Positions 8,618-32,187 of a stretch of DNA of 64,000 bases are shown one piece after another. Below the pieces are notes generated by a model. The model saw nothing but the letters and a program-made list of their open reading frames with translations, searched no databases and was not told where the DNA came from. How positions within the stretch are numbered: the first letter of the stretch is position 1; every line of letters starts with the position of its first letter. A program made the translations under genes and the position numbers. The stretch is from Pseudomonadota bacterium (GTDB lineage Bacteria > Pseudomonadota > Alphaproteobacteria > Rhizobiales > Hyphomicrobiaceae). The DNA is taken from positions 31,137-95,136 of the forward strand of contig JAEYPL010000031.1 of assembly GCA_023410905.1 (NCBI GenBank), in the 5' to 3' direction.

Positions 8618-9673
8618 CTAAATTGCCCCCGCCTCGACAACATCTTCAAACATCGCATCAAGATTGGTCAGGGACATCGTCTTAGTGGGGCCGATAATGA
8701 CCAGCGCAGACCCGCTACTTGCACCATTGCCCTGCTCTGATACCCAGTTTTCCCGTTGTCCTACCCGATGAAAGATCGTGCGCGTGCCGGTTTGGTCAGA
8801 CTGACGGAACACGCCTTTAGCGCGAAGCACATCGGCCGGTATTTTGCGCAGGCTGTCCCGAAGTCGATTGGCATCGACGGGGCCCGACCAGGATCGGCTC
8901 CAGGTTGAAAGGCCGATCTCGTGGGCTGCCGTGCAAGCAATCTCAGGATCGCGCATTGATTTCACGCCAAGCACGAGATCGGGCGGCACATCCGCATTCG
9001 ATGTCTCGACACGTGGAGCCGACGTTATTGCCTCGAGGAGGCCGTGCATGTTCACTCGGCTCGCTGGAGCGACAAGATCGCACTTGTTGAGCAGCAGGAG
9101 ATCCGCTGCCTTGATCTGTTGCTCGACGGTTGCGCGAGTGAGCGCATCTGCCAGACGGCTTTCGATGCCGTCTGCGTCGACTATCGTGATGACTCCGTCG
9201 AAGCGCACGCTTGGATTGGAAAGTGCGACCAGCAGGATGCCGCGCGGGTCGGCGGCACCGCTTGCCTCAAGTACGATGCAATCGGGCATCTCATCGCGTT
9301 GGGCGATTTGAACCAGTGTGCGTGTGAGATCGCCGGCGACAGTGCAGCAAGCGCATCCGTTGGTCAGCTCTATCGTATCGGAAGACACGCCTTTGATGAG
9401 TTCTGCATCGATATTGATGGCGCCGAAATCGTTCACGATGACCGCGATCTTTCTCCCATGTGGCTGCGTAAGGAGACGATTCACCAGCGTGGTCTTCCCG
9501 GCGCCGAGAAAGCCACTGATCACCGTTAGCGGCAGAGAACCTTTCGCAGCCCGCAACGTTGGAGGAATAAACTGAGCGGCCTGCATCAGGCCAGTGAGCA
9601 TGGAAAGCGTCGAGAAATTATCTGCTACCGTCCGCGTTTGCTGCAAGGGATCATCCCCGCTCGAATCCGTCAT
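8618..9673 (-). CDS. COG0523/CobW-family G3E GTPase (putative metallochaperone), copy 1
   Basis: P-loop GFLGAGKTTLVN, CxCC motif (NGCACCTV), the NKCD-type switch LLLNKCDL and a CobW_C-like tail. ATGA overlap with the upstream amidohydrolase. Confidence 0.9.
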   Translation of the reverse strand: MTDSSGDDPLQQTRTVADNFSTLSMLTGLMQAAQFIPPTLRAAKGSLPLTVISGFLGAGKTTLVNRLLTQPHGRKIAVIVNDFGAINIDAELIKGVSSDTIELTNGCACCTVAGDLTRTLVQIAQRDEMPDCIVLEASGAADPRGILLVALSNPSVRFDGVITIVDADGIESRLADALTRATVEQQIKAADLLLLNKCDLVAPASRVNMHGLLEAITSAPRVETSNADVPPDLVLGVKSMRDPEIACTAAHEIGLSTWSRSWSGPVDANRLRDSLRKIPADVLRAKGVFRQSDQTGTRTIFHRVGQRENWVSEQGNGASSGSALVIIGPTKTMSLTNLDAMFEDVVEAGAI

Positions 9674-11334
9674 GCCTTCTGCACCTTGCCTGCGAGAACG
9701 GTGCCCCAGATGCCGATGTCCTTGATCGCCATCGGATCCACATCGTAGGGGCTGTCTTCGAGGATGGCAAAGTCGGCGAACTTGCCAGGCTCCAAGCTGC
9801 CAACCTTATTCTCGAGGCCGAGCACGTACGCAGCATCGATCGTAATTGCGCGCATCGCACGATCCACGCTGATCCGTTCGCCTGGAGCGACCACTGTCTT
9901 GCCGTCAAGTGCAACGCGATTAACAGCGATCCAGGCCGCCGTGAGTGGATGGAGCGGGACCACGACGAGAGAATAGTCCGAGTGGATCGTGAAGGTCACG
10001 CCCGCTCGCTCGAGCGAACCGAGCCGCGCGACCGCTTCAGACCGATCGGGTCCATAGCCTTCGTTTGCGTGGATCTGGCTACGATAGTGGGTGAAGTAGT
10101 TGTTGACGCTGGCAAGCCCTCCGAGCGCCTTGAGGCGACGCGCCTGTTCCGGCGTGCTGATGCAGTAGTGCTCGAGGGTGAAGCGATGGTCGAACTTTGG
10201 TCTTATCGCTTGAAGCTTAGCGAGCGCATTGAGCGACGCGTCGATGGCTTCATCACCATTTGCATGGCAATGGATCGGAATTCCGGCTTCCCAGAAAGGG
10301 AGCATCCGTTCGTGAAATTCGTCCCAGGGAACGTCGTTGCGCAGGCCATTGCTACCGTCGAGATAGCCCGGATAGTTCAGGCGCAGCGACATCGCCGGAA
10401 ATGATCCATCGGAAAAGAACTTCACGCCATGGAAGAAGAGCTTATCGGAATTACGCTTCTCCATGATTGACAGCATGAAATCGGCGCGCTTGCTCCCATG
10501 TGTGCGATGTAGCGCGTTTTCCTGCGGCACCAGCCCCATCCGTAAAGGAAACGCTGGATCGTTGACGACGGCATTATAGAGCTGCCACTCAAGCTCGAAA
10601 TCGTTTGCTCCGAAGACCAGCTCAGCGGTTGTTGTCATGCCAGCCTTGTGGGCAACAGCGCCCATGCGCCTGATGCCATCAGCGCCACCGCGTTTCGCGA
10701 TCTCCGCCCGGATTCCTCCGAGAGCAATCACCTTCGCCTCGATCTCCACAAACTGGCCGTTGAGGCGGCCGTCATCGTAACGCAGCACGCCATGAACGTT
10801 TGAGTTCTCGGGAATGTTCGCACTCTTGATCGCAGCCGAATTGAGGTAGACGAAGTGCGGTGCATACGAGATCGCCCAGATCGGCCTGTCGCCAAGCAAG
10901 GCATCGAGTTCGTCACGATGGAGATGTGAGCCCTGAATTGCAGGGTCCAACCCCCAACAGATGATAGGCTCTTGCGGATTGCGCAACGACTCATGGATCG
11001 AGCGCAGTTTCGCCTTGACCGCATCCATGTTTGGCAGGCCATTGTAATGCGTGCCATCCGGCGCCGGGGAGTCGATCGGCCCGATATAGTGCAGGGCCAT
11101 GTAGCCAGAGCTCATCAGGAAGTGTGTATGCGGGTCTATAAGTCCCGGCATGATGACCTTTGACTTGAAGGTGTCATCGATCACATGCGGATAACGCGAG
11201 AGCCAAGGCTGCATGCTCTCGATCGTGCCGGTGGAAAGCACACGACCATCTCTGACCGCCACGGCTTCCGCGAACGGGCGCCCGGCGTCCATCGTGATGA
11301 CTTTCCGCGCCGGATAGACGACGATCTCGCTCAT
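9670..11334 (-). CDS. Metal-dependent amidohydrolase (Amidohydro_3 / YtcJ-like), copy 1
   Basis: Motifs PGLIDPHTHF, HCHANGDEAID and HSDYS. The ATG at 11334 is preceded by GGAGGAG; the ORF track TTG start at 11352 is less likely. Confidence 0.9.
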   Translation of the reverse strand: MSEIVVYPARKVITMDAGRPFAEAVAVRDGRVLSTGTIESMQPWLSRYPHVIDDTFKSKVIMPGLIDPHTHFLMSSGYMALHYIGPIDSPAPDGTHYNGLPNMDAVKAKLRSIHESLRNPQEPIICWGLDPAIQGSHLHRDELDALLGDRPIWAISYAPHFVYLNSAAIKSANIPENSNVHGVLRYDDGRLNGQFVEIEAKVIALGGIRAEIAKRGGADGIRRMGAVAHKAGMTTTAELVFGANDFELEWQLYNAVVNDPAFPLRMGLVPQENALHRTHGSKRADFMLSIMEKRNSDKLFFHGVKFFSDGSFPAMSLRLNYPGYLDGSNGLRNDVPWDEFHERMLPFWEAGIPIHCHANGDEAIDASLNALAKLQAIRPKFDHRFTLEHYCISTPEQARRLKALGGLASVNNYFTHYRSQIHANEGYGPDRSEAVARLGSLERAGVTFTIHSDYSLVVVPLHPLTAAWIAVNRVALDGKTVVAPGERISVDRAMRAITIDAAYVLGLENKVGSLEPGKFADFAILEDSPYDVDPMAIKDIGIWGTVLAGKVQKA

Positions 11335-11609
11335 GATGGGCTCCTCCAGCAAGCCGGTCCAAGCGTTGAGACTAAGCTTGGCTCAGCGGCGTGCGTTATT
11401 ATCCACACGACACATGTTTTGTAGTTTTCCGCATTTGTCGTCAGGAGGGGCCGCCTCAAGCAAGCCTGCTGTTTCGGTGCTGCTTCACGCTCTGGCAACG
11501 CCCCACGGCGGCGGAAAACTGATGAGTGCTTGCAGGTGCGCGACAGTCACGACGTAAGATCGCGACGCGGGCTGTGCTCCCTATTGCAAGCCCCGCACCC
11601 TGCGTGAAA

Positions 11610-11626
11610 TGTCACCGATCGTGACA
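11610..11626. promoter_or_regulatory. Inverted repeat TGTCAC-N5-GTGACA, a candidate operator
   Basis: Perfect 6-bp arms about 30 bp upstream of the CocE/NonD gene start, in the divergent 320-bp intergenic region. Confidence 0.25.
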
Positions 11627-11654
11627 AGCAAGCCCGAGGCAGTGGGGGAAGCAT

Positions 11655-13484
11655 ATGCCAGATAATGACGATCGCGGCCAAGCTTGGCGCGTGCCGCCGA
11701 GCCGCTATCTTGCGACACGCCCCACCACCTACAGCATCCCGAAGCCCATTTCCTGTTATGTGACGATGCCGGACGGCTGCCGTCTTGCCGCGGATATCTA
11801 TATCCCGCAGGGCGCGGACGCAGATGTGCGACAATGGCCCACCATTCTCATCTGCACGCCCTACTATCGACGCTTCCAGGTGAAAGCCGGCGCCAGTACG
11901 GAGCCCTGCCCGAACACCTTTCGCTATCGCGATATGTTTGTGCCGCGCGGTTATGCGATGGTCGTGGTCGATATCCGCGGGAGTGGCGCCAGTTTTGGTA
12001 CGCGCGACAGTTTCCGTTCACCTCGCGAGCGTGAGGATTGTCGCGCAATTGCGGATTGGATCGTCGCTCAGTCGTGGTCCGATGGCCGGATCGGCGCGAC
12101 GGGGATTTCCTATCTGGGCGCCGCGAGTGATTTTCTTGCGAGCACCGGCCATCCGGCCGTCAAAGCGATCGCGCCGCTCTTCGCCGTCTGGGACACCTAT
12201 CCCGACAACTACTATCCAGGTGGCGTGCTGCTCAAGGAGTTGGCGAGGGTCTACGACGGTATGATGGTCGCTCTTGACCACGACCGGCGCGACTTTCTCA
12301 AGAACTACGGCTATTACGCAGATCCTAATCTTGAAGGTCCGCATCCCGTCGATGAAGATGAAGACGGCAGCTTGTGTCGGGCTGCAGTGCGCGAACACGT
12401 TGCAAATTTCCGAATGCCGGACTTCATCACCGAGTTCAAGTTCAGGGACGATGCACTCCCTTATGACAAGAGCTTCACGTCAGCCAAGTTCGGACCGTAC
12501 AATTACGCTAGCGGCATTCGCGAGGACGTCGCTGTTTATACGGTCTCGGGTTGGACAGACGGCGCGGGCTACGCGAATGGTACGATCAGCCGCTTTTTGA
12601 CGCTTCCGAATCCTAACAAGTATCTTCTGCTTGGACCATGGGATCACGGAGCACGCGTCAATACTTCCCCCTGGCGCGACGGCGTCTCTCCCCAATTCAC
12701 TGTTCTTGCCGAGATCCTGCGCTTTTTCGATGAGCATCTCGCCGGAATGCACACCGGCCTCAAAAGCGAGTCGCGGGTCCACTACTTCACCTTTCATGAG
12801 GAAGCGTGGCGCGAAAGCGCAAACTGGCCACCGACCCGTGAAGCTAAACGCCTCTATCTCACCGCCGGACACGAACTGACCGAGGCGCAAGGTTTGGCGG
12901 GCTCAGACAGCTATCAGGTCGACTTCGGTTCGGGGACAGGCAACGAGACGCGATATGAACGCATCGCCGGTCTCGATATCACGCGCTACTACACGGATTG
13001 GCAGGGACGCGGAGATCGAATGTTGTCCTATGTCTCGATGCCCCTAGATCAATCTCTCGAGATTTCGGGCCATGCCTTGGCATCGCTGTGGGTTTCGTCA
13101 AGTGAGCCGGATGCGGCGCTGTTCGTCTACCTGACGGAGATCGAGGAGGACGGCACGGCACGTTACATAACGGAAGGACTACTGCGCGCCTTGCATCGCA
13201 AGGAGAGCCCGTGTCCGCCGAACTACAAGACCAGTTGGCCTTATCGCACCTTCTCGCGGGCGGATGCCGCGCCTATGCCGATCGGCAAGCCCGAGGTGCT
13301 CCGCTTTCCGCTGCTGCCAGTTTCCTGGACCCTCCAGAAAGGAAGCCGCCTGCGGGTTTCCATTGCTGGGGCAGATGCCGATCACTGCGGTCAGATCCCC
13401 CATGGCCGACCGCCCCTGCTGACGGTGCACTGGGGCGGCGACTTAGGCTCTTACATAGAGCTGCCAGCAAAGGCTCTCGGCTAA
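11655..13484 (+). CDS. CocE/NonD-family (S15, X-Pro dipeptidyl-peptidase-like) alpha/beta hydrolase
   Basis: N-terminal signature ADIYIPQG..PTILICTPYYRR..VVVDIRGSGASFG, the nucleophile elbow GISYLGA and a long C-terminal jelly-roll region. Confidence 0.9.
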   Translation: MPDNDDRGQAWRVPPSRYLATRPTTYSIPKPISCYVTMPDGCRLAADIYIPQGADADVRQWPTILICTPYYRRFQVKAGASTEPCPNTFRYRDMFVPRGYAMVVVDIRGSGASFGTRDSFRSPREREDCRAIADWIVAQSWSDGRIGATGISYLGAASDFLASTGHPAVKAIAPLFAVWDTYPDNYYPGGVLLKELARVYDGMMVALDHDRRDFLKNYGYYADPNLEGPHPVDEDEDGSLCRAAVREHVANFRMPDFITEFKFRDDALPYDKSFTSAKFGPYNYASGIREDVAVYTVSGWTDGAGYANGTISRFLTLPNPNKYLLLGPWDHGARVNTSPWRDGVSPQFTVLAEILRFFDEHLAGMHTGLKSESRVHYFTFHEEAWRESANWPPTREAKRLYLTAGHELTEAQGLAGSDSYQVDFGSGTGNETRYERIAGLDITRYYTDWQGRGDRMLSYVSMPLDQSLEISGHALASLWVSSSEPDAALFVYLTEIEEDGTARYITEGLLRALHRKESPCPPNYKTSWPYRTFSRADAAPMPIGKPEVLRFPLLPVSWTLQKGSRLRVSIAGADADHCGQIPHGRPPLLTVHWGGDLGSYIELPAKALG

Positions 13485-14524
13485 AGAGGCTCGTCGAAGA
13501 TGCGGCGCGCGGTGTCAGTTGATGGGCTGATCCGGCGCGTCGCTTTTGGCGTCTGTGTGAGAAGACGCTTGCGTTGCTCCGACGGATTGATTCCGTAAGC
13601 GAGCTTGAATGTCTTGCTGAGGTGCGCGCCGTCGGCGAAGCCCGTGTCGGCCGCGATTGCGGCAAGGGACAGATCGGAATTCAGCATCCATCGCGCGTGC
13701 TTGAGCCGCAGCCGGAGATAGGCTGTGTGCGGCGCGCAGCCGACCTTCTCCTTGAACAGCCGTTCGAGTTGGCGGGCGCTCGTATGGACCTGCGCTGCGA
13801 CCTTTGCCACCGGCATTGGCCGCGCCAAATTCTGCTCCATGATCAGTAAAGCGCGCGAAACCCGGTCGTTGTCACCGGAAAGGGCCATCGGCGGTGCCGG
13901 CTGAGCCGAAGAGCCTGGTCGAGCGCGATCGATCTGCAAAATGTGAAGAGCCTTTTGCGCGCTCGCCGGCCCCAGATGACGCTCAACAAGAGAAGCCGCC
14001 AGAGAGGAAACGCCGGCGCCTCCTGAGCACGTTATGCGATCTCCGTCGACCACATAAAGTCGGTCGGCAATCGGCACCTGATCGCCAAACTCCTCCACGA
14101 AGTCGCGATAATGATACCAGCTGATGCAGCATTTGCGTCCTTCGAGCAGTCCGAGGCGGCACAGCACAAAACTGCCTGTACACAATCCAACGAGCTTGGT
14201 GCTCGAGCACGCAGCTTTAAGAAGATATTCCTGGGATTTGGGGTGCAACTGGGGGCCAGTATGAAGGAGCCCTCCGACGGTAACGATGTAGTCAAGGTCG
14301 CTGGGATCAACGAATCCCGAAGTAGGGCGGATATAGGCGCCGCAGCTTGCGCGGATCGCATCTTCCGAATGCGACATGATTTGCCACTGGCATCGGATCG
14401 GGCGGCTCTTATCGCCTTCGTCTGCTGCGAGACGAAGAATGTCGACAAAGTTGGCAAACGCCGTCAGCGTAAAATTATTGGCTAGGATGAAGCCAACTCG
14501 CAGCGGTGTCGGTGCCCTTCGCAC
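13481..14524 (-). CDS. GlxA-family transcriptional regulator (DJ-1/PfpI-like domain + AraC HTH)
   Basis: N-terminal GATase1-like/DJ-1 domain (RVGFILANNFTLTAFANFVDILR.. LCTGSFVL). C-terminal AraC-type HTH (ARQLERLFKEKVGCAPHTAYLRLRLKHARWML.. IAADTGFADGAHLSKTFKLAYGINPSE). Its 3' end overlaps the convergent CocE/NonD gene by 4 nt. Confidence 0.9.
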   Translation of the reverse strand: MRRAPTPLRVGFILANNFTLTAFANFVDILRLAADEGDKSRPIRCQWQIMSHSEDAIRASCGAYIRPTSGFVDPSDLDYIVTVGGLLHTGPQLHPKSQEYLLKAACSSTKLVGLCTGSFVLCRLGLLEGRKCCISWYHYRDFVEEFGDQVPIADRLYVVDGDRITCSGGAGVSSLAASLVERHLGPASAQKALHILQIDRARPGSSAQPAPPMALSGDNDRVSRALLIMEQNLARPMPVAKVAAQVHTSARQLERLFKEKVGCAPHTAYLRLRLKHARWMLNSDLSLAAIAADTGFADGAHLSKTFKLAYGINPSEQRKRLLTQTPKATRRISPSTDTARRIFDEPL

Positions 14525-14653
14525 GTGCCGATATACTCCTCTTTAGAAAGGAAACATGCGTAGCTGTATTTGAATATGCCCCGCCAGCGTGGAATTTGGC
14601 AAGGCTATGCCCGGGCCGTAGTGCGAGCCGAGCTGCCCGATTGCACGCCAGGC

Positions 14654-16492
14654 TCACCGGCCGAACGCGTAACCCTGCATGTAGCGGGCATTCGCTGCGG
14701 CCCTGAGCACGCGGCCCCGACGCGACGCGGCGCTCAGGCGGCCAAGAGACCACTCGGCCACGGTCTCGACTTTGTGGCCTCGTGCCTCTAGGCGCCTCAC
14801 GGCCTCCGGGGAAAAACGGCTCTCGATGGTCAACGAGGCGGGCTTTGCCTGACGCGGAAAGAACGAGCTCGGCATGTGATCGTTGTGAAACATCGGAAGG
14901 TCGATGCTCTGCTGAAGGTTATCGACGTGATGCACGTGACGCAGGAAGAAGGCGAGGCTCCACTGGTCCTGCTGGTCACCACCAGGGGTGCCGAAGCTCA
15001 GATAGGGTTCACCATCACGTTCGATCATGGCCACCGATAGCGTGGTCCGCGGCCGTTTGCCGGGCGCGAGGGAAGCGGGCAGGCCAGGCCTTAACCAGAA
15101 CATCTGCGCGCGCGTCCCGAGAGTGAAACCCAACCCCGGTATCACGGGTGAGCTCTGCAGCCAGCCTCCGCTTGGTGTCGCCGAGACCATATTGCCGAAG
15201 CGATCGACAATGTCGAAATGCACAGTATCGCCGCGCGAGGCTCCGCGCGGACCGACGGTCGGCTCGCCAGCGCCGAGCGAGGTGCCTTCGCTGCCCGTGC
15301 CGTCCGCAACCGCGTAGGGAACGTCATGCTCATAGCCCTCGATATGACCAGGGCGGAACTCGGCGGACGCGTGGCGGCCTATAAGGCGACGTCGCGCATT
15401 CGAATAATCAGCGCTCAACAGCGTATCGACCGGTACATCTACATAATTCGGATCACCGTAGAATTTCTCGCGATCCGCAAATGCCAGTTTCGAACTCTCG
15501 GTGACGAGGTGGACGAACTCGTCGCCGACCGGATCCAATGCGCCGAGATCAAAGCCCTTGAGCAAAGCCAACTGCTGAAGGAATACGGGGCCCTGCGTCC
15601 ACACGCCGGGCTTGTTGACGCGGTATCCATGGTAATCAATGGATAGTGGTTCCTCGTAAGTCGGCTCCCACGTCGCTAGATCTTGCCCAGTGATGAGGCC
15701 CCGATGGCGCTGCCCCGACGTATCCATGACCTCGCTTTCGCGGGAGAAGCGATCGATCGCGTCCGCGATGAAGCCTTGATAGAAGGCTTGCTTGGCGGCA
15801 TCGATCTGACGCTCGCGTGATCCTCCCGCTGCTTCTGCGGCGGCCAGTATCCGCTCATACGTCGCAGCCAGATCAGGGTTACTGAAGAGTGTTCCCGCCG
15901 TCGGCACGTCCGGCCGCAGGTAGACATCACGCGAGGTCGGCCATTCATTGCGGAACAGCGGCTCGACGATCTTGATTGCCGCCGCAATGCGCGGGAGCAG
16001 AATGTATCCATTGCGGGCATAGCCAATCGCCGGTTCTAGGACGTCGCGAAGGCCCAGCGTGCCGTAGTCCCGAAGGAGTACCATCCACGCGCCGAACGAG
16101 CCTGGCACGCACGCCGGCAGAAGTCCGCTGCCCGGAATGATATCGAGCCCAAGAGCGTCGAATGCCTTGATCGTCGCCGCTTGCGGAGCCACGCCCTGGC
16201 CGCAGAGAACGCGCGTCTTGCGCGACTTGGCATCGTTGAAGATGATGGGAACTTCACCGCCGAGCCCATTCAGGTGCGGCTCGACCACCTGAAGAGCGAA
16301 GCCGGTGGCGACTGCCGCATCGAACGCGTTCCCACCGATCTCCAGCACTCGCATCCCGGCAGCCGTACCAAGCCAGTGCGTCGACGCGACAACGCCATAT
16401 GTTCCGACAATCTCTGGGCGGGTCAGAAACGGCGGCTCGCCGGCATCAGGCCCGTAAGTGAGACGGAAATTGCCCAGTGAGAGCTGGCTCAT
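14654..16492 (-). CDS. Gamma-glutamyltransferase-family Ntn hydrolase, no signal peptide (copy 1)
   Basis: GGT-family N-terminus (VVASTHWLGTAAGMRVLEIGGNAFDAAVA) and an autoprocessing/nucleophile Thr context (GDTVHFDIVDRFGNMVSATPSGG). I chose the ATG at 16492 (MSQLSLGN..); the ORF track start at 16669 would overlap the divergent gene. Confidence 0.85.
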   Translation of the reverse strand: MSQLSLGNFRLTYGPDAGEPPFLTRPEIVGTYGVVASTHWLGTAAGMRVLEIGGNAFDAAVATGFALQVVEPHLNGLGGEVPIIFNDAKSRKTRVLCGQGVAPQAATIKAFDALGLDIIPGSGLLPACVPGSFGAWMVLLRDYGTLGLRDVLEPAIGYARNGYILLPRIAAAIKIVEPLFRNEWPTSRDVYLRPDVPTAGTLFSNPDLAATYERILAAAEAAGGSRERQIDAAKQAFYQGFIADAIDRFSRESEVMDTSGQRHRGLITGQDLATWEPTYEEPLSIDYHGYRVNKPGVWTQGPVFLQQLALLKGFDLGALDPVGDEFVHLVTESSKLAFADREKFYGDPNYVDVPVDTLLSADYSNARRRLIGRHASAEFRPGHIEGYEHDVPYAVADGTGSEGTSLGAGEPTVGPRGASRGDTVHFDIVDRFGNMVSATPSGGWLQSSPVIPGLGFTLGTRAQMFWLRPGLPASLAPGKRPRTTLSVAMIERDGEPYLSFGTPGGDQQDQWSLAFFLRHVHHVDNLQQSIDLPMFHNDHMPSSFFPRQAKPASLTIESRFSPEAVRRLEARGHKVETVAEWSLGRLSAASRRGRVLRAAANARYMQGYAFGR

Positions 16493-16569
16493 GTTCGAAA
16501 CACTCCACGGCGCACAGTCTGACGCCGCAGACCATTCGCGCTTCTTCGGCTGCAGTTGGTCGCAGCAAT

Positions 16570-16593
16570 CTGGTCGGTTATATAACGATCCAG
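16570..16593. promoter_or_regulatory. Imperfect 24-bp palindrome CTGGtcgGTTATATAACgatCCAG, a candidate operator
   Basis: A perfect 10-bp core palindrome GTTATATAAC flanked by CTGG/CCAG. It sits centrally in the 194-bp divergent region between the two GGT-family genes. Confidence 0.25.
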
Positions 16594-16686
16594 ACGCCTG
16601 TCTTGTCGATTTGCGACACTGCATTGCAGGGTCCGCGTCCAATGCTACGGTGCGCGCCTCACAGCTCAAAGTTCGGCGAGGTTCTC

Positions 16687-21489: not shown

Positions 21490-21506
21490 GAGCCACTGAG
21501 AATTCC

Positions 21507-24297: not shown

Positions 24298-24313
24298 CTC
24301 GGAGTGCAGTCGC

Positions 24314-25378
24314 GTGTCTCAGCCAACCGATAGCAAACGCCCCGCCATCGACAGCACCCGGGCCGATGCGGCGGCGACATGGCAGATGCTGCTCGGCATT
24401 GCGCAGGCTGCGCGCCTGATGCCGGAGCGTCGTGCCGCAGCACCCGGATCGGTAGAGTTCTCGCTCATCGCGGGCTTCCTAGGCGCCGGCAAGACGACAC
24501 TGGTCAATCACCTCCTGGGCGGTGCGCATGGGCGCCGCCTCGCCGTCATCGTCAATGATTTTGGCGCCATCAACATCGACACATCCCTGATCAGTCGGCG
24601 CGATCGCGACACGATAAGCCTGACGAATGGCTGTGCGTGCTGCAGCATGGCCCGTGGCTTGACAGAAACGCTGCTTACGCTCACTGAGCAAGCAGAGCCC
24701 CCGGAGGCGATCATACTGGAGGCCAGCGGCATCGCTGAGCCGCAGCCCATTCTTCATGTCGCCCTTACCAATCCCGCTTTGGCGCTCAACGGTGTCGTCA
24801 CGCTCGTGGATACAGAGACCGCTCTGGAGCACGCCAGTGATCCAAACTTCGGCGCCATCGTGACGCGCCAAGTGAGTGGTGCCGATCTCGTGGTTCTGAA
24901 CAAATCGGATCTTGCAACGCCAGCAATGTCGGACGACGTACAGGCCTGGGCGCGGCGTATCGCGCCAAATGCCGCCATCGTGAGGTCCACAGAGGCGAAT
25001 GTAGCCACTGAGGTCGTGCTCGGTTATCAGGCGTCGCACGCCATGCCCGCACAAGATGGTCGTGATGTGAGCGGAGGCACCAGCAAACCGTTCCGGAGCT
25101 GGAGCTTTGCGTTCGACGAAGCGCTGAGCGCCGAGCGCGTGCGCAAGCTTTCGGAAACCTTGCCGCACGGCATTCTGCGCGCCAAAGGCACGCTCTATCT
25201 CGCCGACGCTTCCGAGCATCGGCATGTCTATCAGCTCGTTGGCCGCCGGTGGCGGCTGTCGCGCGACATAATATGGGGTGAAGCGCGCCCACGATCAGAG
25301 ATCGTCTTCATTGCAGCTGACAGCTTGATCGAAGAAGCTCAGATCAGGCGCTGCCTGGACGAGTGCGTCGTGACCTGA
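24314..25378 (+). CDS. COG0523/CobW-family G3E GTPase (putative metallochaperone), copy 2
   Basis: P-loop GFLGAGKTTLVN, CxCC motif (NGCACCSM) and VVLNKSDL. GTG start 16 nt after the amidohydrolase stop. Confidence 0.9.
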   Translation: MSQPTDSKRPAIDSTRADAAATWQMLLGIAQAARLMPERRAAAPGSVEFSLIAGFLGAGKTTLVNHLLGGAHGRRLAVIVNDFGAINIDTSLISRRDRDTISLTNGCACCSMARGLTETLLTLTEQAEPPEAIILEASGIAEPQPILHVALTNPALALNGVVTLVDTETALEHASDPNFGAIVTRQVSGADLVVLNKSDLATPAMSDDVQAWARRIAPNAAIVRSTEANVATEVVLGYQASHAMPAQDGRDVSGGTSKPFRSWSFAFDEALSAERVRKLSETLPHGILRAKGTLYLADASEHRHVYQLVGRRWRLSRDIIWGEARPRSEIVFIAADSLIEEAQIRRCLDECVVT

Positions 25379-25384
25379 GCACGC

Positions 25385-25963
25385 TTAGCTGTCGCTTACG
25401 TCGCGCGATGCGCCCTCCAGGAAGCCGTGCACGTAGGGCGCGAAAGATCTCCAGCACACCACGCGGTAGCCTCGATCCGCGCTCGACCGAACGAGCACGA
25501 TTTCTGCTTTCCCGAGCACGGTGCGCGTGGCCGATCCTGCAGGAAAAGCAGCGTCATCAAGGTCGAGCGCCACGCCGGCATTGAGCACTATCGGTGCCTT
25601 CACACCCGCCACGACCATCGATACATTGCGATGGCTGACGTCGACGAGCGAGTGGTGTTTCCCTTCGAGAGCTGCGCTGATCAGTTGTGCCAGCGCATCA
25701 CTATCGCCCGCCGGCGCCATCAGCAGCCATTCGTCCGGGCCCAGGCGGGCCGCCGTCTTTTCTTCGGTCGCGATTGCCGTATTGATGCGGCCCGTAAGAT
25801 CGAAGCCAGCGACGTGCCGAATGCTCTCGGCGATCGCAGGTGCAATACGCAGCGCGTAGGCCGTGCTTGCTTCAATGTTCGAGATCGTCACGCCAGATGC
25901 CGCGCCTGACGCAACAACATCCTGTGCTCGCAGGCGGGTGCTGTTCGAGTGCCGCTCAGACAT
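25385..25963 (-). CDS. soxG: Sarcosine oxidase gamma subunit
   Basis: It is the last gene of the soxBDAG order and has a SoxG-like sequence (..YALRIAPAIAESIRHVAGFDLTGRINTA..LGPDEWLLMAP..). The ATG at 25963 overlaps the soxA stop by 8 nt. Confidence 0.85.
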   Translation of the reverse strand: MSERHSNSTRLRAQDVVASGAASGVTISNIEASTAYALRIAPAIAESIRHVAGFDLTGRINTAIATEEKTAARLGPDEWLLMAPAGDSDALAQLISAALEGKHHSLVDVSHRNVSMVVAGVKAPIVLNAGVALDLDDAAFPAGSATRTVLGKAEIVLVRSSADRGYRVVCWRSFAPYVHGFLEGASRDVSDS

Positions 25964-28900
25964 GGGCCAGATTCCCGTTAACGCGCTTGCCCTCTGCATC
26001 GAAGAAGACGGGCGGCGCGACTGTGGCGGCAGCAAAGCCGTCAGGCGTCGTGATGTGAAGCGTCTCGCCTATGCGGGCGCGTCCCCCGGCCACGAGCGCG
26101 AGCGCAATAGGTCGGCCGGCAGCGTCGCTCCAGTAGCTCGACGTCACGTGTCCCAGCATCTTCATCGGAATTGGCGCTTTGGGATCAGCAACGATCTGCG
26201 CGCCTTCATCAAGCACGACCTTTTGATCCGTCGTCAGCAGGCCGACAAGCTGCTTGCGATCGGGCAGCACCATATCCGACCGTGAAATCGAACGCTTACC
26301 AACGAAGTCGCGCTTTGCCGCGGAGACCATGCCCCCGAGCCCCGCGTCATCAGGCGTCACCGTGCCATCCGTATCCTGCCCCACGATGATGAAGCCGCGT
26401 TCCGCACGGAGCACGTGCATGGTTTCTGTGCCATAAGGCGTGATGCCGGACGACGCGCCCTGCTTGATGATGGCATTCCAAACCGCCGGCATGTGCCCGC
26501 TCGGCACATTGATCTCGTAACCGAGCTCGCCGGTGAAGGACACGCGGAACAGGCGTGTCGGCACCCCGCATATTTTGCCCATGCGAATGGACATGTGCGG
26601 AAACGCGACTGGCGATAGGTCGATGTCTTCTACGAGCGGTTCGATCGCATCACGCGCCTTGGGTCCTTGCACGGCGATGACACCCCACTGCTCGGTCGTC
26701 GAGGTGAGATAGACCTTCAGATCGCTCCATTCGGTTTGGAGATAATCCTCCATGTGCATGAGAACCCGGGCAGCACCGCCCGTGGTGGTCGTCACATGGA
26801 AGCGATCTTCGGCGATGCGCGCAACGACGCCGTCATCGAAGATGAAACCGTCTTCGCGCAGCATGAGGCCGTATCGGCAACGGCCGGGCGCCAGCTTCAA
26901 CCAGGCATTGGTGTAGATGCGATTGAGGAACTCAGCAGCGTCCGGGCCGACAACCTCGATTTTCCCGAGCGTTGATGCGTCGAATATGCCAACGCCCGAT
27001 CGCACCGCGCGGCATTCGCGACTTACGGCCGCGTGCATATCCTCGCCCGCGCGCGGGAAGTGGCGTGCCCGGCGCCAGAGGGACACGGGCTCGAAGACCG
27101 CGCCTTGAGCTTCAGCCCAATCGTGCAGCGGTGCCTTACGCACGGGATCGAACAGGGCATCCCGTGCTTGCCCTACGATGGCACCGAAGGACACGGGGGT
27201 GAATGGCGGGCGAAATGTTGTCGTGCCGACCTCGGGAACGGGCTTATCGAGAGTGTCGGCTACGATCCCGAGCGCGAGCATGTTCGACGTCTTGCCCTGG
27301 TCCGTCGCCATGCCCGTCGTCGTATAGCGCTTGACGTGCTCGATGCTTTGGAAGCCCTCACGAACGGCGAGCTTGATGTCCTTCGCCGTGACATCATTCT
27401 GGAAATCCAGGAACGCGCGCACCCGGCCTTGATCGCGATCGGTCGGCAATACTCTCGTGCGCCCGATGTCGGTGCGCTGCGCGGGGGCCACCGCAAAGGA
27501 CTTGCTCGTCACCGTGCCCACGGCCTCGGCGCCGGCGGACCAGGCTTCAGACAGGACGCCAGGAAGATCGTACGTGCCGTTGGCAGCTCCGGTTGAGCGC
27601 TCTGCCTGCACTGAAGTCCCGGGAACGAACGCATCGATTTCTTCGTGAAAGCGCAAGCGCCCGCGAGACTGCGAGAACAGATGTACTGCCGGCGTCCAGC
27701 CGCCCGACATGGCAACAGCGTCGCACGGCAATGTCCGATGCGCGCCGATCGCACCATCCTTACTCATCTCCGCGACGATCAGGCCTGTTACCCGCTTGCG
27801 ACCGCGTGAGCCGATGATCGTATGGCCGGTCAACACCTCGACACCGAGCGCGCGCAGCTCCCCTGCCTCTCTGCCGCACTGTGTCGGATGGCGGACGTCG
27901 ACAAACGTCACGTCTATCCCGGCAACCTTGGCATCCGCCGCGGCCTGATAGGCAGACGATGTCGCCCCGGCAAACACAATCCGGCGTCCGGGCGCAACCG
28001 CATAGCGGTTGATGTAGGCTCGTACGCTTTCCGCCAGCATAATGCCGGGTCGATCATTGTCGGCAAACGCCAGGGGACGCTCATGAGCACCCGCGGCTAG
28101 GATTACTTTCTTCGCGCGCACTTGCCATAGACGCTCGCGAGGGAGGTCACTCGCAGGCGCCGTCGGAAGATGGTCCGTGACGTGCTCGACCATCGCAATG
28201 TGATTGTGGTTGTAGTATCCGAAGACTGTCGTGCGCGGCAGGAGGATGACACCGGAGCGCGCGGACAAACTCCGAATGGACGCTGCAAGCCAGTCTTGAG
28301 CCGAGACCTCATCGATCCGTGAGGTTTTATCGTGCAGCAGCGTGCCACCAAGCTCCGCTTGCTCGTCGGCAAGAATGACGCGGGCGCCGCTCTCGGCTGC
28401 CGCGAGAGCTGCGGCCAGCCCAGCCGGCCCCCCACCCACGATGAGCACATCGCAATGCGCATTCCGTTGGGCATAGCGGTCCGGATCATTCTCCGTGGGG
28501 GCTACCCCGAGGCCCGCCATTGCGCGGATGGCCGGCTCGTACAGCCGATGCCAGAAGCTGCTCGGCCACTTGAAGGTCTTATAGTAGAAGCCAGCAACGA
28601 ATACCGGGGCGAACCAATCGTTGATTGCGCCGAAGTCCCAGTCTAGAGAAGGCCAGTGGTTCTGCGAACGCGTCGTCAGACCATCTACCGCCTCGACAAC
28701 GGTTGCCCTGTTGTTCGGATCCGTCCTGCCGCCACCGCGATCGACATTCAAAAGCGCATTTGGCTCGTCGGAACCATGACCAAGCACGCCGCGCGGGCGG
28801 TGATATTTGAATGAGCGCCCGACGAAGTGAGTGCCATTCGCCAAGAGTGCCGAGGCGACCGTATCTCCCGCGAAGCCGTCGATCGCGCGCCCGTTGAAGC

Positions 28901-28982
28901 TGAAGCGCACCGGCCGCGCGCGATCGATACGCCCGCCATTCGCGAGCCGAAAGGGCTGCCGCGAAGCAAGCGAAGGCATCAA
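25956..28982 (-). CDS. soxA: Sarcosine oxidase alpha subunit
   Basis: 1008 aa with an NAD/FAD Rossmann motif (DVLIVGGGPAGLAAALAAA). The C-terminal aminomethyltransferase/GcvT-like folate-binding domain includes GIFDASTLGKIEVVGPDAAEFLNRIY. Confidence 0.95.
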   Translation of the reverse strand: MMPSLASRQPFRLANGGRIDRARPVRFSFNGRAIDGFAGDTVASALLANGTHFVGRSFKYHRPRGVLGHGSDEPNALLNVDRGGGRTDPNNRATVVEAVDGLTTRSQNHWPSLDWDFGAINDWFAPVFVAGFYYKTFKWPSSFWHRLYEPAIRAMAGLGVAPTENDPDRYAQRNAHCDVLIVGGGPAGLAAALAAAESGARVILADEQAELGGTLLHDKTSRIDEVSAQDWLAASIRSLSARSGVILLPRTTVFGYYNHNHIAMVEHVTDHLPTAPASDLPRERLWQVRAKKVILAAGAHERPLAFADNDRPGIMLAESVRAYINRYAVAPGRRIVFAGATSSAYQAAADAKVAGIDVTFVDVRHPTQCGREAGELRALGVEVLTGHTIIGSRGRKRVTGLIVAEMSKDGAIGAHRTLPCDAVAMSGGWTPAVHLFSQSRGRLRFHEEIDAFVPGTSVQAERSTGAANGTYDLPGVLSEAWSAGAEAVGTVTSKSFAVAPAQRTDIGRTRVLPTDRDQGRVRAFLDFQNDVTAKDIKLAVREGFQSIEHVKRYTTTGMATDQGKTSNMLALGIVADTLDKPVPEVGTTTFRPPFTPVSFGAIVGQARDALFDPVRKAPLHDWAEAQGAVFEPVSLWRRARHFPRAGEDMHAAVSRECRAVRSGVGIFDASTLGKIEVVGPDAAEFLNRIYTNAWLKLAPGRCRYGLMLREDGFIFDDGVVARIAEDRFHVTTTTGGAARVLMHMEDYLQTEWSDLKVYLTSTTEQWGVIAVQGPKARDAIEPLVEDIDLSPVAFPHMSIRMGKICGVPTRLFRVSFTGELGYEINVPSGHMPAVWNAIIKQGASSGITPYGTETMHVLRAERGFIIVGQDTDGTVTPDDAGLGGMVSAAKRDFVGKRSISRSDMVLPDRKQLVGLLTTDQKVVLDEGAQIVADPKAPIPMKMLGHVTSSYWSDAAGRPIALALVAGGRARIGETLHITTPDGFAAATVAPPVFFDAEGKRVNGNLAHV

Positions 28983-29269
28983 CGCCCCTCCTTCGTCGCA
29001 TCGGGGCGAGTTTCACCCATGGAATAGGTCTGCTCGATGGCATCGCTTACGGTGTTGCGGATGGCGTTGAACCAGCGCCCGCAACCGTGAACGTGTAGCC
29101 AGCGCTCCGCGTGCCTGCCCTTCGGATTACTTCGATAGTAGAGATACTCGGCCCATTCCTCGCTATTCAGCGCGGACGGATCGACTGGACGGGCAATATG
29201 GGCTTCGCCGCCGCCACGAAATTCGATTTCCGGACGGGCTCCGCAGTAGGGGCATTTGATCAGCAGCAT
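28979..29269 (-). CDS. soxD: Sarcosine oxidase delta subunit
   Basis: MLLIKCPYCGARPEIEFRGGGEAHIARP..HGCGRWFNAIRNTV is the typical small Zn-binding SoxD. ATG at 29269; the longer ORF track start would overlap soxB. Confidence 0.9.
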   Translation of the reverse strand: MLLIKCPYCGARPEIEFRGGGEAHIARPVDPSALNSEEWAEYLYYRSNPKGRHAERWLHVHGCGRWFNAIRNTVSDAIEQTYSMGETRPDATKEGR

Positions 29270-29277
29270 GAAAAGCC

Positions 29278-30531
29278 TCAGTGCGCCACGGCCGCGGCCG
29301 CGGCCTCGTCGACAAGACGGCCGGTCCGGAAGCGATCCAGAGTGAAGGGCGCATTGATCGGATGCGGTGAACCTGTCGCCAGCGTATGGGCGAAGACATG
29401 CGCCGATCCGGGTGTCGCCTTGAACCCGCCCGTGCCCCATCCGCAGTTGACAAAGAGACCTTCAACCGGCGTGCGGCCGATGATGGGCGATCGATCAGGT
29501 GTGACATCGACAATGCCGCCCCACGAACGCATCATGCGCATCCTGCGGAACTGAGGGAACAGTTCGCAGATCGCGTCGAGCGTGTGCGTGGTGATGTGCA
29601 GTCCACCCTGCTGCGAGTAGGAGGTGTATTGGTCCGTGCCGGCGCCGATAACCAGCTCCCCCTTGTCCGATTGGGAGATGTAAGCATGAACCGCATTCGA
29701 CATGACGACGCAGGGAAACACTGGCTTCACCGGCTCTGACACCAGCGCCTGCAAAGGAAAACTTTCGAGCGGCAACCGCACCCCGGCGTGGCCCAACACA
29801 ACGCTGGTGTGGCCCGCCGCAACAACACCGACCCGCTTCGCTGCGATCTTTCCGCGTGTCGTCTCGACGCCACTGATGCTGCCGTCGCTTGCCCGTGTGA
29901 ACCCCGTGACCTCGCAGTTCTCGATAATGTCGACGCCCCTCGCGTCGGCCCCACGCGCATAGCCCCACACAATCGCATCGTGGCGCGCTGTGCCGCCCCG
30001 GCGTTGCAGCGCGCCACCCATGACAGGATAGCGCGCCTCTGGCGAAATGCTCAATGGTGGGCAGAAGGCCTTGCATTGCTCGGGCGTCAGCCACTCGTTA
30101 TCGATACCGTTCAGCCGGTTCGCATATATGTGCCGCTTGAAGCTCTGCACATCGTGCACCGAATGCGCCAGCATGAGCACGCCACGCGCCGAGTACATGA
30201 CGTTGTAGTTGAGTTCGCTCGAGAGATTCTCCCATAATTTCAGCGCATGTTCATAGAGCCCGGCACTTTCATCATAGAGATAGTTCGAGCGGATGATCGT
30301 CGTGTTGCGGCCGGAGTTGCCACCGCCGATCCAGCCCTTCTCGAGCACGGCGACATTCGTGATTCCGAACTCTTTGGCCAGGTAGTACGCGGTCCCGAGC
30401 CCATGGCTGCCGCCGCCGACAATCACGACATCGTAGCCGGCCTTCGGCTCGGGCGAGCGCCATTGTCTCGGCCATCCGCGATGCGCGTTGAGAGCCTCCG
30501 CTAGTAGGCTGGTTACTGAGAAACGGCGCAT
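29278..30531 (-). CDS. soxB: Sarcosine oxidase beta subunit
   Basis: YDVVIVGGGSHGLGTAYYLAKE FAD-binding motif, length and position typical of SoxB. Confidence 0.95.
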   Translation of the reverse strand: MRRFSVTSLLAEALNAHRGWPRQWRSPEPKAGYDVVIVGGGSHGLGTAYYLAKEFGITNVAVLEKGWIGGGNSGRNTTIIRSNYLYDESAGLYEHALKLWENLSSELNYNVMYSARGVLMLAHSVHDVQSFKRHIYANRLNGIDNEWLTPEQCKAFCPPLSISPEARYPVMGGALQRRGGTARHDAIVWGYARGADARGVDIIENCEVTGFTRASDGSISGVETTRGKIAAKRVGVVAAGHTSVVLGHAGVRLPLESFPLQALVSEPVKPVFPCVVMSNAVHAYISQSDKGELVIGAGTDQYTSYSQQGGLHITTHTLDAICELFPQFRRMRMMRSWGGIVDVTPDRSPIIGRTPVEGLFVNCGWGTGGFKATPGSAHVFAHTLATGSPHPINAPFTLDRFRTGRLVDEAAAAAVAH

Positions 30532-30792
30532 GTAGTGGGATCCGGGCCCGTCCAGTTGGAATAAGACCAGGAACCATACGTAAGCTCACCGAGGCCATCC
30601 CGGATCAAGGCGACGTTCGGGTGGATAAATCCGACATCCTGGCCGATCGCACATTCACCCTCGGAATTCGACGCGCCTTTCCGTGACAACGTCGCTTGGG
30701 ACATGCTTTCGTCAAGATGGTATCGGTCGGCTTCAGCATGGGAAAATGGCAAGGCTACCCTTCGTCAGTGGCCGACTCGCACTTGGAAGCAA

Positions 30793-32187
30793 ATGATCAC
30801 TTCGACGTTTAACATCTTTAAGATCGGCATTGGCCCCTCGAGTTCTCACACTATGGGCCCCATGCTTGCCGCACGGCGGTTTCTCAACGAGCTCAAGTCG
30901 GGGAGCTGGCCGAGGCCGGCGAGAATAAAGGTGGAGCGCATCGGGGTTCGGTTACATGGCTCCCTTGCCTATACCGGCCGTGGGCATGCGACCGACCGCG
31001 CTATCGTTCTCGGTCTCAATGGACATGCGCCCGACACCGTCGAGCCGGATGAGATCGCCAGCATCATAGAGCTCACCAGCCGAACGCGGACCATTTCGCC
31101 GCCCGACCACCATACATACAGCTTCGATCCGGCGAGCGATCTTGTCTTCGATCGAAAGATGCCACTCCCTGGTCATCCCAACGGCATGACCTTCGAGGCT
31201 TTTGACGAGGATGGTGGCCTCGCACTGCGCCGTCACTATTTTTCAGTCGGCGGCGGGACGGTCTTGCAACAGGACGAACTCGAGAGCCGAGGCGCGCAGT
31301 TGGCGGTGCCGGATGCATCTCCATTTCCTTTCCGCAGCGGACGGGAGATGCTCGACATGGCGGAAAAATCGGGCCTTTCGATTGATGAGATGCAGATGGC
31401 CAACGAGCTGCTGCATCTCTCCGAAAAGGAGGTCGATCGTCGCCTCGACGAGATCTGGCAGGCTATGCGGAGCTGCATCGACAGAGGGCTCGCGCGGGAT
31501 GACATCCTGCCCGGCGGCCTGAATGTCAGACGCCGCGCTGGCAGAATGCATCGGCAGCTGCTCGCGGATCGGCAACGGAATGAGACCGGCAGTTTCGCAA
31601 CCAACGATTGGCTATCTGTTTTCGCGATGGCCGTGAACGAAGAGAATGCAGCCGGCGGTCGCGTAGTCACAGCGCCGACCAATGGCGCTGCCGGCGTTGT
31701 TCCGGCTGTTATCGCGTTTGCGCAGGAATTCATTGCCGGTGTCGGACCACAGGCCATCCGCCGTTTTTTGCTCACTGCTGCCGCCGTGGGCAGTCTGATC
31801 AAAGCCAATGCATCCGTCTCCGGTGCAGAGGTTGGCTGCCAAGGCGAGGTTGGTTCGGCATCGGCAATGGCCGCAGCAGGCCTATGCGCAATATTAGGGG
31901 GCACTCCTCCACAGATCGAGAATGCCGCGGAGATTGCGATGGAGCATCATCTCGGCATGACGTGCGATCCCATCAAAGGTCTCGTGCAGGTTCCATGCAT
32001 AGAGCGTAATGCCATGGGTGCAGTGAAAGCAGCCACTGCCGCCTCGCTCGCCATGCGGGGGGATGGGGAACATTTGGTGTCGCTGGACGTCGCGATCGAG
32101 ACGATGCGCCAAACGGGGCTGGATATGCACGAGAAGTATAAGGAGACCAGCTCCGGCGGTTTGGCCGTCAACTACGTCGAGTGTTAA
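30793..32187 (+). CDS. sdaA: L-serine ammonia-lyase (iron-sulfur L-serine dehydratase)
   Basis: N-terminus [24 protein letters not shown] and the beta+alpha domain fusion typical of SdaA. I chose the ATG at 30793 rather than the ORF track start at 30703. Confidence 0.9.

Follow-up and report, generated by a model that had tools for sequence, protein, structure and literature searches.

Gene content of the sarcosine oxidase locus

The DNA analysed here, in the following called the window, is a stretch of 64,000 nucleotides from a Pseudomonadota bacterium of the family Hyphomicrobiaceae (assembly GCA_023410905.1, contig JAEYPL010000031.1, positions 31,137 to 95,136 of the forward strand). At positions 8618-32187 it contains a chromosomal gene cluster in which two amidohydrolases (AhA and AhB), each followed by a gene for a COG0523 GTPase (CgA and CgB), further hydrolases, an ATP-binding cassette (ABC) importer and a regulator lie beside the genes for a heterotetrameric sarcosine oxidase (soxBDAG, collectively sox) and L-serine ammonia-lyase (sdaA). 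Open reading frames (ORFs) of the window were listed and searched with Pfam and NCBIfam profiles, and a public metagenome contig of identical sequence carries gene calls that concur. All genes named in the original prediction are present at 8618-32187, and the convergent 6-bp gap at 25378/25385 as well as the divergent orientation of sdaA were described correctly. The features are:

8618-9673, minus strand: CgA (COG0523_A), G3E metallochaperone GTPase (PF02492, 1e-47, and CobW_C)
9670-11334, minus strand: AhA (Amidohydro_3_A), YtcJ-like metal amidohydrolase of 554 aa (PF07969, 5e-52)
11655-13484, plus strand: CocE/NonD (S15) serine hydrolase (TIGR00976, 340 bits)
13481-14524, minus strand: gatR, GATR regulator, DJ-1/PfpI-like with AraC helix-turn-helix (HTH) domain (PF01965 and PF12833/PF00165)
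14654-16492, minus strand: GGT_A, N-terminal nucleophile (Ntn) hydrolase of the GGT family, 612 aa (PF01019, 3e-112)
16687-18339, plus strand: GGT_B, second GGT-family hydrolase, 550 aa (PF01019, 2e-124)
18682-19749, plus strand: substrate-binding protein (SBP) of the PotD/PotF superfamily (SBP_bac_8/6/1; RRQML twin-arginine motif)
19769-20662, plus strand: ABC permease 1 (BPD_transp_1)
20659-21489, plus strand: ABC permease 2 (BPD_transp_1)
21507-22595, plus strand: ABC ATPase with TOBE domain (ABC_tran and TOBE_2)
22636-24297, plus strand: AhB (Amidohydro_3_B), downstream of the transporter (PF07969, 2e-58)
24314-25378, plus strand: CgB (COG0523_B), metallochaperone GTPase (PF02492, 6e-43, and CobW_C)
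25385-25963, minus strand: soxG (PF04268)
25956-28979, minus strand: soxA (TIGR01372)
28979-29269, minus strand: soxD (PF04267)
29278-30531, minus strand: soxB (match to solved heterotetrameric sarcosine oxidase structures)
30703-32187, plus strand: sdaA, L-serine ammonia-lyase, divergent from soxB (TIGR00720, 606 bits, above the cut-off of 345)
32920-35160, minus strand: HPII-type large-subunit catalase (PF00199, 2e-178, and Catalase_C)

The four subunit genes of sarcosine oxidase are contiguous (25385-30531) and SoxB is close to characterised enzymes, matching the solved heterotetrameric sarcosine oxidases 1VRQ/3AD7/2GAG with 545 bits. SoxA reaches 1458 bits with TIGR01372 (cut-off 1164), and SoxG is recognised by PF04268 (58 bits) and scores slightly below the cut-off of TIGR01375 (124 versus 144 bits). 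AhA and CgA share 4 nt, where the stop of the former meets the start of the latter. A 4-bp overlap (13481-13484) also joins the stop codons of the convergent genes cocE and gatR; like the 6-bp gap between CgB and soxG, it leaves no space for a terminator.

The regulator, the only one listed for the cluster, combines an N-terminal DJ-1/PfpI (GATase-1-like) domain (PF01965) with a C-terminal AraC HTH domain. Its earlier description as GlxA-type can thereby be refined to a GATR of the GbdR/SouR/CahR kind. The best NCBIfam match is GbdR (NF052371) with 191 bits against a cut-off of 480, and the protein is therefore not a GbdR orthologue. In Pseudomonas, the GATR family controls the catabolism of the N-methylated amines sarcosine, betaine, carnitine and creatine (bioRxiv 10.1101/2021.11.02.466972). 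An exact 11-mer, TGGCAAGGCTA, has just two occurrences, one upstream of gatR (14597-14607) and one in the soxB/sdaA intergenic region (30747-30757); with flanks the two sites are identical at 15 of 17 positions. The repeat is only weakly significant, and it may be a site of the regulator.

The original prediction had called the region an island. Recent horizontal transfer is not borne out, as the GC content of 0.57-0.63 within the cluster does not deviate from the flanks (0.59-0.60) and no integrase or transposase was found among the annotated ORFs of the window, a scan that did not include tRNA genes. The absence of glyA, folD and purU holds: the window has no glyA homologue, and PurU- and FolD-type domains are missing from the ORFs scanned.

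Linkage of the hydrolase genes to sarcosine oxidase

Loci were fetched around relatives of the amidohydrolases and of the SBP, together with the gene neighbourhoods of selected database matches. The genes of the window were scored in each locus by tblastn (E at most 1e-12, at least 40% query coverage), because a simple ORF caller gave antisense artefacts in high-GC loci. The counts for the amidohydrolases refer to non-redundant loci that extend at least 8 kb to either side, and sox was scored within 10 kb. The database matches divide into AhA-like and AhB-like groups. Among the 18 AhA-type loci (at least 66% identity; Alpha- and Betaproteobacteria), whose AhA orthologues share 66-75% identity, SoxB/SoxA was found in 15, or in 16 if L086 is included, where soxG was recognised by Pfam. 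A COG0523 gene adjoins the amidohydrolase in all 18. GATR is present in 16 of the loci, and it is in these that gatR orthologues (44-64% identity) flank either soxB or the transporter. Moreover, sdaA comes after sox or AhA-CgA in most related loci.

The most complete counterpart was found in Afipia Root123D2, with the order gatR / SBP-permease-permease-ATPase / tRNA_edit / CocE / AhA-CgA-soxBDAG-sdaA-glyA-GGT_A and 48-75% identity to the window over nearly the whole set (SoxG lower, 34%). B. elkanii WSM2783 keeps the Afipia order from gatR to GGT_A but its locus has no transporter, two further loci of Bradyrhizobium agree with it up to glyA, and a metagenome-assembled genome (MAG) of the Hyphomicrobiales has the block, GGT_A included, without an adjacent transporter. 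In Afipia, B. elkanii and the SCN18 MAG the sox-sdaA-glyA operon ends with the GGT_A orthologue (70-71% identity), and cocE orthologues (54-59%) adjoin AhA/sox or its transporter in Afipia, Bradyrhizobium and Bordetella-like MAGs. The arrangement gatR / soxBDAG-AhA-CgA-sdaA, found in several Betaproteobacteria and in loci such as L009, L011 and L085, places the pair inside the sox operon between soxG and sdaA, other Burkholderiales show AhA-CgA-soxBDAG-gatR-ABC, and L095 shows SBP-permease-permease-ATPase-M19-AhA-CgA-soxBD. Since the gene orders vary between lineages, selection is favoured over shared ancestry of a single arrangement. The original prediction had proposed that the hydrolase set feeds sarcosine oxidase and had named co-occurrence in related genomes as the way to check this. 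The linkage of AhA-COG0523 to soxBDAG and the near-complete Afipia block support the proposal, and independent segregation was not seen.

Outside this group the picture is different. The 42 relatives at 50-65% identity comprise two loci with sox, 30 with an adjacent COG0523 gene and none with GATR. The distant pairs come from Acidimicrobiia, sponge symbionts and some marine Proteobacteria, and the actinomycete relatives have no COG0523 gene. Distant pairs that are nevertheless adjacent to sox were found in three marine Gammaproteobacteria/Rhodospirillaceae loci (L203, L217, L220) and in L087. Reading a pathway from the neighbours of the distant members in Acidimicrobiia was tried and given up, as these neighbours (short-chain dehydrogenase/reductase, glyoxalase, Mo-hydroxylase, P450 and luciferase-like genes) are not consistent between loci.

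The nearest genomes to the window are Hyphomicrobiales. In the closest one, a Hyphomicrobiaceae MAG (JBDHTJ01; loci L003 and L098) with 87-94% protein identity, neither cocE-gatR nor GGT_B lies between AhA, GGT_A and SBP; GGT_B is lacking in L003, and the cocE orthologue (79%) is located beside a different SBP on another contig. This shows a rapid modular reshuffling of the cluster.

Such differences in gene content, even in the closest genome, might suggest that the adjacency is meaningless, i.e., that a polyamine-type importer and assorted hydrolases came to lie near sox by chance and that the COG0523 proteins act in zinc homeostasis at large or supply the zinc site of SoxD. Zinc is bound by the delta subunit of sarcosine oxidase, and the SBP has a PotD/PotF-like fold. 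Furthermore, zinc starvation is the context in which many COG0523 proteins act, and the clients of these are not known (PMC11672702). We nevertheless regard this explanation as very improbable. The clustering is not a matter of chance, because the same genes are syntenic with sox across many other genomes: the AhA-COG0523/sox linkage covers 15-16 of 18 loci in two classes with differing gene orders, where a random locus would be expected within 10 kb of sox in well under 1% of cases. The SBP scores far below the cut-off of the PotD model. As COG0523 follows the amidohydrolase even where sox is missing (the 30 of 42 distant loci), the amidohydrolase and not SoxD is its constant partner.

Amidohydrolase-COG0523 pairs and accompanying hydrolases

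AhA and AhB are paralogues with 60% identity and each has its own COG0523 gene directly after it, with 43% identity between CgA and CgB. Both GTPases have the features of the COG0523 family, that is PF02492 and PF07683 (CobW_C), the Walker A motif GFLGAGKT, the CxCC motif as GCACC and the NKxD motif as NKCD in CgA and NKSD in CgB. This gene arrangement suggests that each amidohydrolase is probably metallated by its own COG0523 GTPase. In every COG0523 protein paired with these amidohydrolases (window, L080, L082, L083, L085, L087) an N-terminal extension of ~45 aa precedes Walker A and includes an invariant M-L-x-G-x-x-x-A-x-x-x-x-P motif; this extension may be a client-docking element.

None of the hydrolases of the window has a close characterised relative. 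For AhA the best PDB matches, 3ICJ/3IGH, are both uncharacterised. A Foldseek search with an AlphaFold (AF2) model of AhA, built from a 122-sequence alignment with a predicted local distance difference test (pLDDT) score of 87 (an earlier 15-sequence model with pLDDT 59 was discarded), returned uncharacterised YtcJ-like structures followed by generic deaminases and imidazolonepropionases, which gives no substrate call. In this model the invariant or near-invariant residues H69/H71, K305, H357, H389 and D453 sit at the ends of strands 1, 4, 5, 6 and 8, as judged from residue placement. An HxH/Lys/His/His/Asp ligand pattern is typical of binuclear (carboxy-lysine) amide or cyclic-amide hydrolases and not of mononuclear deaminases. 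The modelled residues of AhA would match these binuclear enzymes, and a ring-opening or amide-cleaving role is therefore favoured.

The second pair is associated with the importer. In the window and in Brucella grignonensis, AhB-CgB follows the ATPase directly and in the same direction, with the same order SBP-permease-permease-ATPase-AhB-CgB, at 82% identity. This site is occupied by an M19-like hydrolase in related operons. Similarly, the site upstream of the SBP, which elsewhere holds an amidase gene, is taken by GGT_B in the window and by a gene of the M20 N-acyl-amino-acid amidohydrolase type in B. grignonensis.

The position of the pair between soxG and sdaA in several Betaproteobacteria, which in Pseudomonas is the position of purU, also allows a different reading. 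The AhA-COG0523 pair might act beside or after sarcosine oxidase, as a metal-dependent deformylase or cyclohydrolase on formyl- or methenyl-tetrahydrofolate (a stand-in for PurU) or in the removal of by-products derived from formaldehyde or imines, the other hydrolases being unrelated neighbours. N-substituted formamide deformylase is an Amidohydro_3 enzyme, the scanned ORFs of the window have no PurU- or FolD-type domain, and genes for a FocA-like channel and an FdhF/YdeP-type oxidoreductase are found at a distance of 3-6 kb from sdaA. The sequence from sarcosine via glycine and methylene-tetrahydrofolate (methylene-THF) to serine and pyruvate is stoichiometrically balanced, so that no deformylase is needed, and glyA and sdaA share the operons. 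Moreover, AhB-CgB, and in L095 also AhA-CgA, are co-directional and directly downstream of the ABC importer, which is typical for an enzyme acting on the imported compound, and the majority of distant family members have neither folate nor sox genes nearby. Taken together, we consider a role in one-carbon disposal unlikely.

The other hydrolases are the CocE/NonD protein and the two GGT-family proteins. CocE has the nucleophile motif GISYLG and a distant match to cocaine esterase (1e-28). In Afipia, Bradyrhizobium and the Hyphomicrobiales MAG a YbaK/ProX-like tRNA_edit gene is kept between gatR and cocE (L080 6864-7379; L010, L166, L167, L170); it is lacking in the window, and its CocE partner is amino-acid-ester-hydrolase-like. 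Both GGT-family proteins have the GGT fold with the autoprocessing Thr nucleophile. GGT_A is ~60% identical to PDB 6J3A (E 5e-183) with the Thr nucleophile aligned (GDT/VH), and it scores below the TIGR00066 cut-off (244 versus 358 bits); for 6J3A/6J3I no paper was found in the literature searched. GGT_B scores above this cut-off (378 versus 358 bits) and has the Thr-Thr-His nucleophile motif (DT/TH). Neither is a classical periplasmic GGT: by inspection a signal peptide is visible on neither protein, in agreement with their earlier description as cytoplasmic, and GGT_B has a His at the position of E. coli Arg114, which binds the gamma-glutamyl carboxylate. The suggestion that the substrate is gamma-glutamylated thus gains no support.

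These enzymes are nevertheless the basis for a reading, in line with the peptide-like or gamma-glutamylated option of the original prediction, in which the cluster degrades small peptides or gamma-glutamyl conjugates of sarcosine or of another N-alkyl amino acid (Xaa-Sar, gamma-Glu-Sar, N-acyl sarcosines), with the S15, GGT-like and amidohydrolase proteins acting as peptidases and deacylases. Xaa-Pro dipeptidyl peptidases and amino-acid ester hydrolases belong to the S15/CocE enzymes, two GGT-family genes are present, AhA and AhB have weak NCBIfam matches to an amidohydrolase-type Xaa-Pro dipeptidase, and related clusters contain genes for M19 dipeptidase-like proteins, for the M20 N-acyl-amino-acid amidohydrolase type (TIGR01891) and for YbaK-like aminoacyl deacylase domains. 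Against this, the gamma-glutamyl-binding Arg of the E. coli enzyme is missing in GGT_B and GGT_A lies below the equivalog cut-off, while members of the GGT family can hydrolyse very small amides; PDB 5HFT, among the GGT structure matches, is an oxamate amidohydrolase. Furthermore, the transporter is PotD/PotF-like and not Opp/Dpp-like, we know of no abundant natural sarcosyl peptides, and the only confidently known accessory hydrolase in related clusters is an N-carbamoylsarcosine amidase. We therefore judge peptide degradation improbable as well, though slightly less so than the one-carbon role.

Importer, substrate and proposed pathway

The SBP was earlier described as a Tat-exported, PotD-like protein. 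The twin-arginine translocation (Tat) signal (RRQMLAG...AFA) and the PotD/PotF superfamily stand, whereas it is not a PotD orthologue: the PotD model NF007048 gives 44 bits against a cut-off of 582, and the match to PotD in the PDB is only 1e-13. SBPs with 42-55% identity sit in a conserved operon of the order LysR / isochorismatase-like-SBP-permease-permease-ATPase-M19-like hydrolase, with the isochorismatase-like gene beside the SBP in ~29 related loci and the M19-like gene in ~20. Along its entire length the isochorismatase-like protein shares 57% identity with the Arthrobacter N-carbamoylsarcosine amidohydrolase 1NBA (E 5e-75), and it keeps the catalytic triad of Asp, Lys and Cys; we regard it as a true N-carbamoylsarcosine amidase. 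In a neighbour-joining tree the SBP of the window and its counterparts from Afipia, the closest MAG, Brucella grignonensis and two amidase-linked operons form one group, which is nested in the large amidase-associated clade. The amidase operon is widespread (L004, L005, L089-L122; e.g., L004 9199-9930, L121 13790-14842) and was found in Methylobacterium, Paracoccus, Xanthobacter, Bradyrhizobium and others. Amidase, M19-like gene, AhA-CgA, transporter, GATR and sox are combined in L095, L138, L091 and in L009 with L111; in Bradyrhizobium sp. Leo170 the two modules are on separate contigs (L090, L166).

The route from creatinine via 1-methylhydantoin to sarcosine passes through N-carbamoylsarcosine as its last intermediate (PMC6742649; PMC4417704), and an ATP-independent N-methylhydantoinase is known biochemically without an assigned gene (PMC4417704). 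No ATP-dependent hydantoinase (HyuA/HyuB) was seen in any related cluster examined, and the M19-like gene is a candidate for an ATP-independent 1-methylhydantoinase. Since relatives of the SBP are operonic with an N-carbamoylsarcosine amidase, there is a pointer to the creatinine/1-methylhydantoin family. The earlier statement that nothing identifies the substrate is softened by this, while it holds that the substrate is not proven. The names of many AhA-bearing MAGs suggest an origin from wastewater or bioreactors, and four public DNA runs with traces of the window include one wastewater and one soil metagenome; creatinine would be expected to be abundant in sewage. Overall, we place the chances that the substrate belongs to the creatinine family somewhat below even.

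We propose that the Tat-exported SBP and the ABC permeases import a small N-methylated amide, ureide or guanidino compound, the likeliest being members of the creatinine family (creatinine, 1-methylhydantoin, N-carbamoylsarcosine or creatine). AhA and AhB, each probably metallated by its own COG0523 GTPase, would open or cleave the imported compound, and CocE/NonD and the two signal-less GGT-like Ntn hydrolases might strip remaining acyl or carbamoyl groups or take side substrates. SoxBDAG would oxidise the resulting sarcosine, yielding glycine, methylene-THF and H2O2, serine would be formed by a serine hydroxymethyltransferase whose gene is located elsewhere, and SdaA would convert serine to pyruvate and ammonium. 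The GATR regulator, of the SouR/GbdR/CahR kind, would turn the gene set on. For this explanation as a whole, in which importer and hydrolases deliver sarcosine to heterotetrameric sarcosine oxidase and which includes the roles of the hydrolases, we see slightly better than even chances. The identities of the genes, the evolutionary linkage of AhA-COG0523, regulator, transporter, CocE and GGT_A to sox and the tie of the transporter clade to N-carbamoylsarcosine amidase are shown by the data. As the window lacks the amidase and the other known creatinine and creatine enzymes, the exact substrate and the amidohydrolase reaction, like the reactions of the other hydrolases, the chaperone-client relation and the co-regulation, are steps that we infer from genomic context.

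Several observations weigh against this proposal. N-carbamoylsarcosine amidase and the M19-like protein gave no tblastn match in the window, hydantoinase A/B, creatinase, creatininase and cytosine/creatinine deaminase are absent from the Pfam scans of its large ORFs, and Afipia is also without known creatinine or creatine enzymes within 34 kb. A creatinine-family route would therefore depend wholly on uncharacterised enzymes or on genes elsewhere: either the genome encodes the known pathway at another location, or an alternative route is made up of AhA, AhB, CocE and the GGT-like enzymes. What CocE and the GGTs contribute, and in which order the steps follow one another, is guesswork. Among SBP relatives of 42-46% identity, many lack sox in the surrounding 10 kb, and the amidohydrolase relatives at 54-64% identity (Acidimicrobiia, sponge symbionts, actinomycetes) are mostly not near sox (2 of 42), so that the chemistry of the family need not always involve sarcosine. 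Regarding regulation, no operator motif common to five intergenic regions was found, and TGGCAAGGCTA is not conserved in the loci of other organisms. Finally, the public reads gave four DNA runs with ~5% of the sampled words and zero RNA runs, and no expression data were found.

A more specific idea, which we hold only tentatively and consider rather doubtful, is that AhA and its COG0523 protein represent a new metallochaperone-client pair supplying a missing, ATP-independent ring-opening or amide-cleaving step from creatinine-family compounds to sarcosine, e.g., as 1-methylhydantoinase or as a new creatinine or creatine hydrolase. If true, this would be an alternative creatinine route widespread in soil and wastewater Proteobacteria, and creatinine assays might gain new enzymes from it. 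Much organic nitrogen enters sewage, soil and animal-associated habitats as creatinine and creatine, and the genes for their ATP-independent breakdown are unassigned; creatinine turnover would be read differently from genomes and metagenomes if the cluster encodes this branch. As the pair recurs across phyla and its hosts include culturable bacteria (Afipia, Bradyrhizobium, Brucella grignonensis), the chaperone-client question is directly testable. No published description of the cluster was found in the literature searched, which included COG0523 with amidohydrolase and sarcosine as well as creatinine fitness data.

The surroundings of the cluster contain further genes. To the right of sdaA, at 32920-38490, the HPII-type catalase (minus strand), an FdhF/YdeP-family molybdopterin oxidoreductase (TIGR01701, 937 bits) and a FocA-like formate/nitrite channel were found, none of which recurs in the related loci. 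Next to an oxidase that produces H2O2, these proteins may take care of H2O2 and formate (one-carbon units), the catalase being a possible accessory of the cluster by adjacency. Just left of the cluster, at 5181-6704 (minus strand), lies a frame-broken second PotB/PotC-like permease pair, whose fragments are 26-38% identical to the cluster permeases and which looks like the remnant of a decayed ABC transporter. A Zn-alcohol dehydrogenase weakly similar to glutathione-independent formaldehyde dehydrogenase (41527-42756; 189 bits versus a cut-off of 637) is followed at 42946-47601 by a pyrroloquinoline quinone (PQQ) biosynthesis cluster (pqqB, pqqC, pqqD, pqqE), which is preceded by a glucose/sorbosone-dehydrogenase-like protein. 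At ~52000-64000 the GC content climbs from ~0.60 to 0.65-0.68 with positive GC skew in a region of kup, BatA/DUF4159, DUF58 and DUF1285 genes, and this rise could be a compositional boundary or an assembly join.

The proposed pathway has counterparts in known systems. As described in PMC6742649 (citing Wyss & Kaddurah-Daouk 2000) and PMC4417704, the known creatinine route of Pseudomonas putida 77 and Arthrobacter proceeds via creatinine deaminase, the ATP-dependent N-methylhydantoinase HyuAB and N-carbamoylsarcosine amidase. The proposed chain is similar in that it is hydrolytic and ends in sarcosine for sarcosine oxidase, and related clusters (L004, L089-L117, L138) encode N-carbamoylsarcosine amidase beside a transporter of the same clade. 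However, the window has none of the three known enzymes and instead encodes YtcJ-like amidohydrolases with COG0523 proteins, CocE and GGT-like hydrolases, with the M19-like hydrolase in related clusters. The SouR/GbdR/CdhR/CahR regulons of Pseudomonas likewise have a GATase-1-like AraC regulator by soxBDAG and sdaA-type genes (bioRxiv 10.1101/2021.11.02.466972; PMC5806209), and the proposed upstream hydrolase would supply sarcosine as creatinase does in P. putida. In contrast, the cluster of the window is without creatinase, gbcAB, dgcAB, glyA, purU and fdhA, and its regulator is not orthologous to GbdR.

According to a 2024 review, the only bacterial COG0523 chaperones with known clients are authentic CobW (cobaltochelatase) and Nha3 (Fe-type nitrile hydratase) (PMC11672702). 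Like these, the candidate pair described here has a CxCC-containing COG0523 GTPase encoded immediately downstream of a putative metalloenzyme, conserved together across phyla, whereas the partner is a YtcJ-like amidohydrolase, which is not listed as a client (PMC11672702), and the GTPase has the N-terminal extension of ~45 aa. The importer shares with PotABCD/PotFGHI the composition of SBP, two permeases and TOBE ATPase as well as the SBP superfamily; it differs in the low PotD score, in the Tat-type signal and in its nearest clade, which is tied to N-carbamoylsarcosine amidase and sox and not to polyamine genes. As a summary, the logic of the cluster is that of the known pathways from creatine or creatinine via sarcosine to glycine combined with GATR control, while the enzymes differ.

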